A stretch of DNA of 26,246 bases from a virus, in the IMG/VR virus record IMGVR_UViG_3300031867_000495, positions 1 through 26,246 of that record. One strand, given 5' to 3'. Positions 1 through 2,332 of this stretch are shown piece after piece. Both the position numbers and the translations under genes were made by a program. The notes under the pieces were generated by a model, which saw nothing but the letters and a program-made list of their open reading frames with translations, was not told where the DNA came from and searched no databases. How positions within the stretch are numbered: the first letter of the stretch is position 1; each line of letters starts with the position of its first letter.

Positions 1-2332
1 TAATTCCATCCGCATCAATTTTAATATTATTTTGGTCTTGTAGCCCAATTATTGCTCCACTCGCCTTAAAAAATGCAACTTTTGTAGCTACTCCATCCAC
101 GCTTTGATATATCGACATTCCTGTATTATCAATCTGGGCGTAGTTGGTAATAGGGTTGGACTCCGCATGAACCTTGATACCATTTGTGCCGTCCGCAGTG
201 ATATATTTAGAGGCAGTCTGTGATGCTGATGTAATTCCTGCATCTACATCCTCTGGCGCAGGAGTCCAAGTTGTACTTTTTTCACCTTCCTACAACTTTA
301 TCCCACATATCTATATATATCCTCCAGCAGGTACATTTGAAGCATAGACATATCCTGCTGAATAACTGTCTCTTTGTGTACCAGTTAAAGTAGCTCCTTC
401 ATAACTAACGTATTGCCAATTGGTAGTAAGTGTCATATTAAAAATTTTACTACCAGTTGTTTGTCCGTTTCCCCATATTGGCTGGGGGGCAACCTCTGAA
501 GTAAAACTAGTATTTGCTCTAATCCAAAGCCCCATACTATATTTTTTCCCTGTTATAAAACGATTGGTTAATCCATCTTGCGCTATTCCAATTCTTGCAG
601 CAGAAGTGCCCGAATTTGTACACCTTATTCCTCCTGTTATTCCTGCCATAGGGGGGGACGATATATCAATATGAGAAGCGGTTCCACCAGAAGATCTCCA
701 TCCTTTTATTCCGCTACTAACAAAAGGCATGCTTGCAGAATTATATAATAGATTTCTTCCACCAATTTCACCACTTAAATCTCCAATATTAATAGCACTA
801 ACGTCTAACTTACCATTAGTTATATTAATTCCACCAATTTCTCCTGAGGTGGCGGTTATTTTACCTGTTAAGTCAACACCAGAAGCATATAAAACTCCCG
901 TATTAGAAACACCAAAATTAGAACCTACTGCTAACATTAATCCAGTTCTTGATGCTCCCGCAATATTAGCAGTCTTATCACTGCTAGATAAATAAAAACT
1001 GGAATTTGAACCTATAGTTCCATACTAAATTGTTCCAGAGGTTAATGTACCCATCTTTGATGCAATAGCTGATAATTTATCTACATTAATTTTTGCTGCT
1101 GTTACAGCATCAGCCGCTATATTATCCGCCTTAACTTCCCCCGCTTTAATTTTTGCAGAAGTCACGGCATTAGCAGCCAATTCATCTGCTGTAATAGCAT
1201 TCGCAGCTATTTGTCCTGCTGTAATACTATTAGCAGTTATTTTACTACCATTAATTGTAGCAGCTGTTAATTCGCCACTTACATTTGCAGCAGGTACTGT
1301 TAAAACTCCAGCGGCAGTTAATTTCATACCTCCAATTTGGGCACTTCCATCATTCCATAGCCACCATTTTCCTCCTGGCCCGCCAGAAATACCATCATTA
1401 TTAATATAAACACCCGAAACATTACTATTCCAAGCAGAATGCCCATTACTATACAAAGCAGAGTTTATCGTAAAATTACCAATCTTACCTGCGCTAGAAA
1501 CAATAACACCTTTAAAATAGCCATTAGTTGTATAGATACCCCATCCTTGAGGAGTAGTACCTTCAACAGCACCTAATCCAGATAAATTTCCAATTCTTAA
1601 ATTAGGATCTGCAAAACCTCCACTTGAACCAGCTGTTGAAGTCGCATTACCACCACCGTAAATATCAATAAAAGTTTTACTATTTGGTCCTAAAGCCGTT
1701 ATATATATACCAATAGGATAAAAAGTAGAACCATCTGCCCTTTGATATAAAGAAATTTTCAACTTACGATAAGGTAACCCCGTTTTAGTACCTATTTCAC
1801 TTAAAATATTAGATGCTAAATAAGTTGACGCACTAGAAGTTTCCTTTTTATTAGTCGTAATTTCTGTGACATTAATTTGACTAGCAGTTACTGTACTCCC
1901 TAACTGCCCCATTAAAGTACCAAAAGGAATATACTCACCATTTACTTGTACTTCTCCTGTAACCAATACCTTAGATCCTGTTGTCCACGCCATGTTAGCA
2001 TTAGAAGCATTTAAATATAAGCTATCAATAGCATAATTAGCTCCATGGAAAGTTAAAGATGTAGCAGTGGTGTCAACGGTTCCAGAATCACTTCCAATAG
2101 TAGGAGTGATATAAAAACTCCCATCAATAGTAGCAATATTAGAATTAGTCCAACTGTTAGTATGTAATTCGCCTTGAACGTCTAATAAACCAACAACAGT
2201 AGCTTCATCAGCTTTTAATTTTTTTATAATTGCGGAGTCCGCTTCAAACGCAGATGTTTCTAGCTCCTCCGCATATACCTTATTTAAAAATCTGCTTGAC
2301 CCATGAACAATTAAATCTTTTAAAATTGCCAT
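1..2332 (-). CDS. Tail-fibre-like structural protein. The N-terminus is at 2332 and the C-terminal end runs off the window at position 1. ORFs 1025..2332 and 311..937 and the stretch 1..310 are one reading frame joined through in-frame TAG at 1025-1027, 311-313 and 290-292
   Basis: RBS AAAGGAGG is followed by ATG at 2332. The N-terminal region has Ala/Ile/Thr-rich helical repeats (ITANSITAGQIAANAITADELAANAVTSAKI). The body is Gly/Ser/Thr/Asn-rich. Near the C-terminus is the motif 'KL[TAG]EGEKSTTWTPAPED', typical of Gram-positive phage tail and receptor-binding proteins. Frame continuity: 1027-937=90 and 313 continues to 310, both divisible by 3. Confidence 0.7.

Follow-up and report, generated by a model that had tools for sequence, protein, structure and literature searches.

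TAG as a probable glutamate codon in a lineage of large recoded phages

The 26,246-nucleotide stretch of viral DNA at positions 1 to 26,246 of IMG/VR record IMGVR_UViG_3300031867_000495 (the window, by which the whole of this stretch is meant) is interrupted by in-frame TAG codons, and the question it raises is which amino acid, if any, these codons specify. An earlier note on this DNA had proposed glutamate or glutamine from two places where a TAG occupies a position filled by Glu in a paralogous copy, adding as a hint that known recoded phages use Gln. Analysis of the window and its relatives indicates that TAG most likely specifies glutamate in the phage from which the window derives, an assignment held with more confidence for the entire lineage than for the window. 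Glutamate is preferred over glutamine because of three sites in the window (292, 3243 and 3090), catalytic sites in relatives, the log-likelihood ratio of the lineage, and tRNA(CUA) genes of glutamate type. The hint taken from known recoded phages does not carry over, the lineage evidence favouring Glu.

TAG is a sense codon in this phage, because translation with TAG as sense alone restores coding coverage and because homology continues across the TAGs. Open reading frames (ORFs) of at least 150 amino acids cover 0.72 of the window under the standard code, a fraction that climbs to 0.93 if TAG is taken as sense and reaches only 0.73 if TGA is; when TAG is read as sense, runs of same-frame ORFs fuse into single proteins of 879 and 1761 amino acids, and the gene calls of the ENA copy of the region already read through TAG. 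The ENA contig with the MVP-like gene is shorter than the window and does not extend it. The terminators of all genes in the window are TAA or TGA, TAA being the commonest. In-frame conservation runs on past TAGs in dozens of independent metagenomic contigs, and TAG is aligned with TAG 671 times between relatives at a local identity of at least 0.85. The gene content, judged by Pfam matches, is that of a tailed phage; G+C content is 33%, and a megablast search of the window against the INPHARED phages gave no match. There are about 53 in-frame TAGs in about 6800 codons of late genes versus none in about 1670 codons at 15522–20866 (all counts approximate). The TAG-bearing late genes occupy 2–15355 on the minus strand (structural genes) and 20867–26246 on the plus strand (a GIY-YIG endonuclease, a metallo-beta-lactamase/CW_7 protein, the endolysin and a holin-like gene); the TAG-free block at 15522–20866 on the plus strand consists of presumed early genes, among them those for a protein resembling the major vault protein (MVP) and an RNA ligase, and can be translated without a suppressor. 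Restoration of coding density with TAG as sense, together with concentration of TAG in late genes and its avoidance in early ones, is the pattern by which recoded phages are recognized.

The first of the two places noted earlier lies in a tail or receptor-binding protein (2–2332, minus strand) whose 3' end is past the window edge. The minus strand of 272–322 translates as GYI[TAG]ICGIKL[TAG]EGEKST, with one TAG at 290–292 (KL[TAG]EG; site 292) and a second seven codons upstream at 311–313 (GYI[TAG]ICG; site 313); another TAG of the same protein is at 1025–1027. Translation of each stretch locates both cited TAGs where the earlier note had placed them and finds Glu in the paralogues that it named, here at 4308–4310 on the minus strand (DRWKLEEGSK, ORF 4161–4754) and at 5462–5464 on the minus strand (KNLKIEEGFV, ORF 4745–6622). 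When the 150 amino acids immediately upstream of TAG 313 were compared by HMMER with 1.84 billion representative proteins, 72 homologues were retrieved. In this set the column of site 292 contains Glu in 65 of 66 distant homologues and Gln in none, and the column of site 313, which by its composition is an acidic position, contains Glu 42 times, Asp 19 times, Val twice, and Gln, His and Ile once each. Site 292 is GAA in four recoded close relatives and Glu in one standard-code relative. The full-length relative of this protein in contig L127 has 1179 amino acids and a Gp10_C domain; a locus search with the 877-amino-acid tail protein as single query found no relatives, an exact-protein look-up of ORF 1028–2332 found no record of it, and the TAG-dense N-terminal tail domain, used as a database query, matched three fragments only. 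Two giant tail proteins encoded on the minus strand (11956–14592 and 6673–11955) have a common N-terminus (MAQISYGSITIVD); at alignment position 23 of these proteins, TAG 11877 is opposite Tyr in the paralogue and TAT in two relatives, so that here a single mutation separates TAG from a codon that does not specify Glu.

Nearly invariant positions are also affected in a CmpB-like membrane protein (2860–3324, minus strand; PF06541, Pfam E-value 8.4e-10), which has four TAGs (first bases 3243, 3150, 3090 and 2916), no GAA or GAG codon, and a TAG at each Glu-like position that could be checked. In an alignment of 28 PF06541 homologues, the columns of TAGs 3243 and 3090 are Glu almost without exception, and wherever Q occurs in them the codon is a TAG that was translated with code 15. 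Each differing Q in the two closest database homologues is likewise a TAG codon at the DNA level, so that these residues were dropped as evidence for Gln; database proteins P0001 and P0002 and the gene calls of L126, L127 and L128 all translate TAG as Q under code 15. Near the C-terminus of a 243-amino-acid structural protein (FTC[TAG]VEI; 14618–14620, minus strand), the residue is Glu in five of five standard-code relatives, and among recoded relatives one has TAG and one GAA. Further Glu-leaning sites of the window are 14193, 14535, 3463, 8574, 21050 and 24362, the last being an endolysin TAG (24362–24364, plus strand) at which standard-code relatives have Glu seven times and Ser once.

The second place noted earlier is in the endolysin (24215–25918, plus strand), which consists by Pfam and translation of GH25 and CHAP domains and two SH3 repeats and has its real stop at TAA 25916–25918, the combination of domains suggesting a Gram-positive host. 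The TAG at 25841–25843 (plus strand) is in the second SH3 repeat (VGVCY[TAG]NGKWYL) and is followed by 24 more open codons and then TAA; the equivalent position of the first repeat (VGVSYETGNWYL) is a Glu codon at 25583–25585 (plus strand). At this site standard-code relatives have Gln six times, Lys once and Ser twice, and recoded relatives have CAA three times and AAA three times. The site does not discriminate between Glu and Gln, and because its column is variable (Gln/Lys) the Glu of the sister repeat decides nothing. Of the paralogue argument in the earlier note, the half that concerns site 292 is strong and the half that concerns site 25841 falls away.

The Glu of the GH25 DxE motif (FWDSE) is written GAA in the window (24515–24517, plus strand), and a relative in the window's subclade (L056), with an endolysin 70% identical to that of the window, has TAG at the same codon (LPVFLDS[TAG]VVQRDK; L056:778–780). 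Four other relatives (L046, L047, L054 and L055) have Glu there, and the TAG of L056 aligns with Glu of FLDYEEV in 4jz5_A in a PDB alignment. In L003 and L005 a GH73 glucosaminidase domain (PF01832, 1.5e-19) reads LIGQMCL[TAG]TGYG, and the region of this TAG aligns with FLVAQAALETGWGKS of FlgJ; a deposited variant of FlgJ has Ala there. The Glu of the GH25 DxE motif and the Glu of GH73 are the catalytic acids of those families, and the alignments indicate that TAG encodes the catalytic Glu of GH25 in L056 and of GH73 in L003 and L005. A different Glu codon of the window's endolysin (AEAHE[E]AQF; 24449–24451, plus strand) is TAG in the same four relatives, L046, L047, L054 and L055, all of them recoded.

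Relatives were gathered on a larger scale by recovering more than 200 IMG/VR loci with the MVP-like protein, the endolysin and two conserved anchor proteins of 797 and 508 amino acids; their contigs, of up to 194 kb, were sorted into TAG-recoded and strictly standard-code by ORF coverage. Residues opposite TAG, Glu and Gln codons were taken from strictly standard-code relatives at a local identity of at least 0.35, with only the longest non-overlapping ORFs considered and with high-scoring segment pairs containing TAA or TGA dropped; a Gln call from pooled ORFs of at least 80 amino acids was rejected as an artefact of spurious ORFs in overlapping frames, marked by odd TAG/TAA alignments. For each TAG column a log-likelihood ratio (LLR) of Glu versus Gln was calculated with empirical profiles derived from Glu and Gln codons; lineages were set by identity of a conserved protein and not by TAG behaviour, columns were de-duplicated, and intervals were obtained by block bootstrap. 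When all 67 recoded loci are pooled, TAG is equally enriched at Glu and Gln columns, and division by lineage resolves this: the per-locus LLR is bimodal and tracks phylogeny, as measured by identity of the 797-amino-acid protein to that of L046, being positive in 25 of the 26 loci at 60% identity or more and negative in 14 of the 15 loci at 57% or less.

In the window's subclade, 110 unique TAG columns give an LLR of +46.0 (95% interval 18.7 to 72.3), and among 34 unanimous columns Glu accounts for 25 and Gln for 2; real Gln codons of the same genomes give 123 unanimous Gln and 9 unanimous Glu columns. The whole lineage (282 unique columns) has an LLR of +114.5 (63.6 to 178.5), with unanimous Glu 46, Gln 4 and Asp 5 of 79; the sister lineage (173 unique columns) has an LLR of -93.0 (-148 to -49), with unanimous Gln 22, Glu 8 and Lys 6 of 48. 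By way of calibration, the unanimous columns of ordinary Glu codons are Glu in 72–77% and Gln in about 1.5%, and those of ordinary Gln codons are Gln in 47–67% and Glu in 5–12%. The mean TAG profile of the subclade is Glu 0.42 and Gln 0.09, and Gln makes up 6–12% of the residues aligned with TAG in the window's lineage. These alignments show TAG columns that behave like Glu codons, including columns at invariant and catalytic Glu positions. The sister lineage, in which TAG by the same measure behaves as Gln, is an internal positive control because the same pipeline calls Gln there. Every likelihood test puts Glu and Gln in the top two places of the 20 amino acids, which upholds the choice of these two in the earlier note, and the residue preference at TAG columns is strong where that note had allowed for the finding of none.

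A suppressor tRNA of the corresponding type is carried by a related phage on contig IMGVR_UViG_3300037400_003528 (L194), which was reached by walking from the end of L020, has an LLR of +6.3, and encodes conserved proteins 61–69% identical to those of the window's lineage. Its array of 28 tRNA genes includes tRNA-Glu(UUC), tRNA-Glu(CUC), no tRNA-Gln, and a tRNA(CUA) (L194:4920–4992, minus strand) that scores 53 bits against the Rfam tRNA model. The first five acceptor pairs of this tRNA(CUA) (G1:U72, G2:C71, C3:G70, U4:G69, C5:G68, with A73) match those of the tRNA-Glu(UUC) of the array, its D stem is GUC/GAC with U11:A24, and its variable loop has 4 nucleotides. The rules of Glu and Gln tRNA identity are known from Escherichia coli, Thermus thermophilus and Bacillus subtilis, and U35 of the CUA anticodon is read by both the Glu and the Gln system; tRNA-Gln identity is marked by a first pair that is weak or U1:A72, by G73 and by a GCC/GGC D stem. 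In a comparison set of 17 phage tRNA-Glu and 16 phage tRNA-Gln, A73 is found in 15 of the tRNA-Glu and G73 in 15 of the tRNA-Gln, and the 1:72 pair is U:A or A:U in 13 of the tRNA-Gln and in none of the tRNA-Glu. The earlier note had considered that a suppressor might prove to be of Ser, Leu, Trp or Tyr type; that of L194 is of Glu type.

Phage tRNA sequences were too diverged to serve as search seeds; a pattern search with the tRNA of L194 located three more IMG/VR contigs, seven metagenome contigs (two of about 140 kb) and two contigs binned into metagenome-assembled genomes (MAGs). Genes for tRNA(CUA) are also recorded in L195–L197 and L219–L227, and G1:U72, A73, the GUC/GAC D stem and U11:A24 recur in the suppressors of the Glu-type lineage (L194, L196, L220, L223 and L226). 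In L196 the Glu-type suppressor (2901–2975) is in one array with a canonical tRNA-Gln (U1:A72, G73), a tRNA-Glu and a tmRNA; a tRNA(CUA) of Gln type is confined to the more distant relatives L024 and L042. The window contains no tRNA and no match to an Rfam family, two 10-kb walks that started from the conserved anchor proteins revealed no suppressor in the nearest contigs, and the intergenic gap occupied by a suppressor in L024, L042 and L043 has nothing but a promoter in close relatives. Calls of CUA tRNAs in L038, L041 and L055, made by ARAGORN in intron mode at a lowered threshold, were rejected as false.

The tRNA genes of these relatives have several other features. The tmRNA gene inside the phage tRNA array of L196 (3426–3735) encodes the tag peptide GNYSYAMAA. 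A 97-nucleotide tRNA(CUA) with a 24-nucleotide insertion in the variable region, G73 and an A1-C72 mismatch is present in L043 (20495–20591), L161 (6468–6564) and L192 (4758–4854), and is 100% identical in two different phages; in L202 and L209, too, a 97-nucleotide tRNA(CUA) gene is found, directly beside a second, 75-nucleotide tRNA(CUA). Genes for tRNA(UCA) in L026 (3643–3718) and L197 (2186–2257) hint that TGA may be read as well in part of the family. The two binned contigs with Glu-type suppressors, L226 (JBGUZU010000044.1, 139.6 kb), binned with an Endomicrobiaceae MAG and sharing genes with the phage family, and L227 (JAJBWD010000222.1, 68 kb), binned with a Bacillota MAG and having a high density of in-frame TAGs, probably come from phages and were sorted into bacterial bins. 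A ruminal label is attached to one binned relative.

These results can be accommodated by a pathway in which the window is part of a phage genome of about 140 kb and a tRNA with a CUA anticodon on a tRNA-Glu body, supplied by the phage or by a helper element, would be charged with Glu by the glutamyl-tRNA synthetase (GluRS) of the host. With an acceptor stem and D arm of tRNA-Glu type and a short variable loop, such a suppressor should be a substrate of GluRS that escapes amidation; in the absence of the tRNA-Gln marks U1:A72 and G73 there would be neither conversion by GatCAB nor uptake by glutaminyl-tRNA synthetase (GlnRS), and Glu would be inserted at TAG. Early genes lacking TAG would be translated by the naive host, and structural and lysis genes only once the suppressor is present, as in the regulatory model that has been proposed for the split between TAG-free early and TAG-rich late genes in recoded phages (Borges et al. 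preprint). By analogy, the proposed pathway borrows the general rules of the bacterial Glu/Gln identity system, in which either a non-discriminating GluRS acts with GatCAB or a GlnRS is present. We infer the charging enzyme, the escape from amidation, the role of early and late timing, and the carriage of the tRNA by the window's phage; the charging and amidation step is the least secure, since most CUA tRNAs of phages are charged by the GlnRS of E. coli (PMC12636597). For the lineage of phages of about 140 kb, it is likely, though a shade less so than glutamate decoding in the window's phage itself, that TAG is read as Glu by means of a CUA suppressor derived from tRNA-Glu, that the sister lineage reads it as Gln, and that the former is an undescribed code for viruses of prokaryotes.

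Several observations weigh against glutamate. Neither the window nor about 60 kb walked in its closest relatives contains a tRNA(CUA), and a Glu-type suppressor is first met in a phage whose conserved proteins share only 61–69% identity. Overall similarity of the suppressor to tRNA-Glu is modest (54–58%), and the Glu-type call depends on few positions. Of 29 phage tRNA(CUA) assayed in E. coli extracts, 28 inserted Gln irrespective of origin (PMC12636597), and in a host that possesses GlnRS the anticodon might direct Gln. In addition, about one third of the TAG sites of the window are in variable columns that lean towards Gln or Lys (25841, 22733, 15085, 15235, 26070, 7680 and 1027), and the window's own columns are nearly neutral, with an LLR (Glu versus Gln) of +0.5 over 13 columns.

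The alternative that survives best, although we think it unlikely, is dual or transitional decoding: a mixture of Glu and Gln, produced by two suppressors or by partial amidation, or a recent switch from Gln to Glu that has left relic TAGs. It would account for the slight over-representation of Gln at TAG columns (5–6% of unanimous columns, versus about 1.5% for ordinary Glu codons) and for the mixed character of the window's own sites, and it is in keeping with the sister relationship of the Gln-type and Glu-type lineages and with the occurrence of two tRNA(CUA) genes side by side in several unrelated phages (L200, L202, L203, L209 and L218). However, a sizeable fraction of Gln would be costly at the catalytic Glu of lysis enzymes and the invariant Glu of the tail protein; the Gln-leaning sites are all variable (Gln/Lys/Glu) and are explained equally well by CAG-to-TAG transitions, where either residue is tolerated, under pure Glu decoding; and no second suppressor was seen in L194 or L196.

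Slightly less probable still is ordinary code 15, by which TAG would mean Gln and the Glu-rich columns would have arisen by GAG-to-TAG mutation at sites tolerant of Gln. All previously described phage reassignments of TAG are to Gln (Borges et al. preprint; PMC8346664), GlnRS charges CUA tRNAs readily (PMC12636597), sites 25841, 22733 and 15085 of the window lean towards Gln, and there are the Gln-type suppressors of L024 and L042 to consider. What this explanation does not accommodate is the location of TAG on invariant or catalytic Glu, at site 292, at Glu28 and Glu79 of PF06541, in GH25 of L056 and in GH73 of L003 and L005, since Gln at the catalytic position of GH25 or GH73 would be expected to abolish activity. 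Nor does it accommodate the unanimous columns, Glu 25 and Gln 2 at TAG against Gln 123 and Glu 9 at real Gln codons, or the tRNA-Glu body of the suppressor in the related Glu-type phage. Furthermore, the CAG-to-TAG transition, being synonymous under code 15, should make Gln the dominant aligned residue, as it is in the sister lineage and in Lak phages, whereas here Gln is limited to 6–12%.

That TAG has not been reassigned, the codons being real stops in pseudogenes or fragments, sites of low-level readthrough or of pyrrolysine insertion, or assembly or sequencing artefacts, is highly improbable: ARAGORN does label every CUA tRNA 'tRNA-Pyl', and database entry P0029 (208 amino acids) is a code-11 fragment that ends at TAG 313, but conservation across TAGs, alignment of TAG with TAG in relatives and the rise in coverage from 0.72 to 0.93 contradict this explanation, and pyrrolysine in particular is at odds with TAG columns that are Glu-like, not Lys-like, and with suppressors that fit the standard tRNA model over their full length with ordinary cloverleaf scores; no pyl genes are found among the Pfam matches of the window proteins scanned.

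Glutamate decoding would set this phage apart from the TAG-recoded phages of code 15, such as Lak megaphages and crAss-like phages (Ivanova 2014, Borges 2022, Peters 2022), with which the window has much in common: TAG is a sense codon, early genes avoid it, TAGs are located in structural and lysis genes, a tRNA(CUA) is phage-borne (here, in relatives), and G+C content is low (about 33% here). In phages with a code differing from that of the host, only the reassignments TAG to Gln and TGA to Trp have been observed (Borges et al. preprint), and Gln is the aligned residue in 75–85% of cases in Lak phages (PMC8346664). In contrast, the aligned residue in the window's lineage is Glu, not Gln, and the suppressor of the related phage has the body of tRNA-Glu, not tRNA-Gln; on the evidence of alignments, and for the suppressor of related phages, the lineage therefore appears to lack both defining features of code 15. 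The sister lineage (for example L165, L171, L175, L184 and L189) has homologous conserved proteins (53–57% identity to the 797-amino-acid anchor) and the same kind of TAG recoding, and differs in that its TAG columns are Gln-like. One phage family thus appears to hold two meanings of TAG; if so, a reassigned codon has switched from one sense meaning to another.

Nuclear codes in which UAR means Glu include those of peritrich ciliates (table 30) and Blastocrithidia (table 31). These belong to eukaryotic nuclear genomes and reassign both UAA and UAG, whereas in the window only TAG is reassigned, TAA is the main stop, and the system is that of a phage using a suppressor tRNA. Reassignment of a stop codon to Glu in eukaryotes has been described (PMC12153298). 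The literature searched, which is not complete, contains no report of TAG as Glu in a phage; the phage reassignments in it are TAG to Gln and TGA to Trp (or Gly), and those to Glu are confined to eukaryotes.

According to the current view, phages reassign TAG to Gln because the GlnRS of the host is easily hijacked (Borges et al. preprint). If glutamate decoding is correct, the rule that phages reassign TAG only to Gln will need revision to include a second route via the Glu system, and sister lineages with two meanings of one codon will constitute a natural system for studying change of a reassigned codon. Public translations made with code 15, exemplified by P0001, P0002 and the ENA gene calls, would carry Gln for Glu, even at catalytic residues of lysins, and such mistranslated entries would affect homology searches, structure prediction and the expression of lysins.

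Two other genes of the window are worth describing. The GIY-YIG/NUMOD homing endonuclease (20972–21955, plus strand), which has six TAGs, comes after the TAG-free block and before the lysis genes; it is non-syntenic in relatives and therefore probably a mobile insertion. The MVP-like protein (16061–18556, plus strand; 832 amino acids) has major-vault-protein domains (MVP_shoulder, 2.4e-23; Vault_3; SPFH/Band_7), contains no TAG, and is conserved at 55–81% identity across 45 phage contigs; a vault-like protein as a core early gene is unusual for a large phage.

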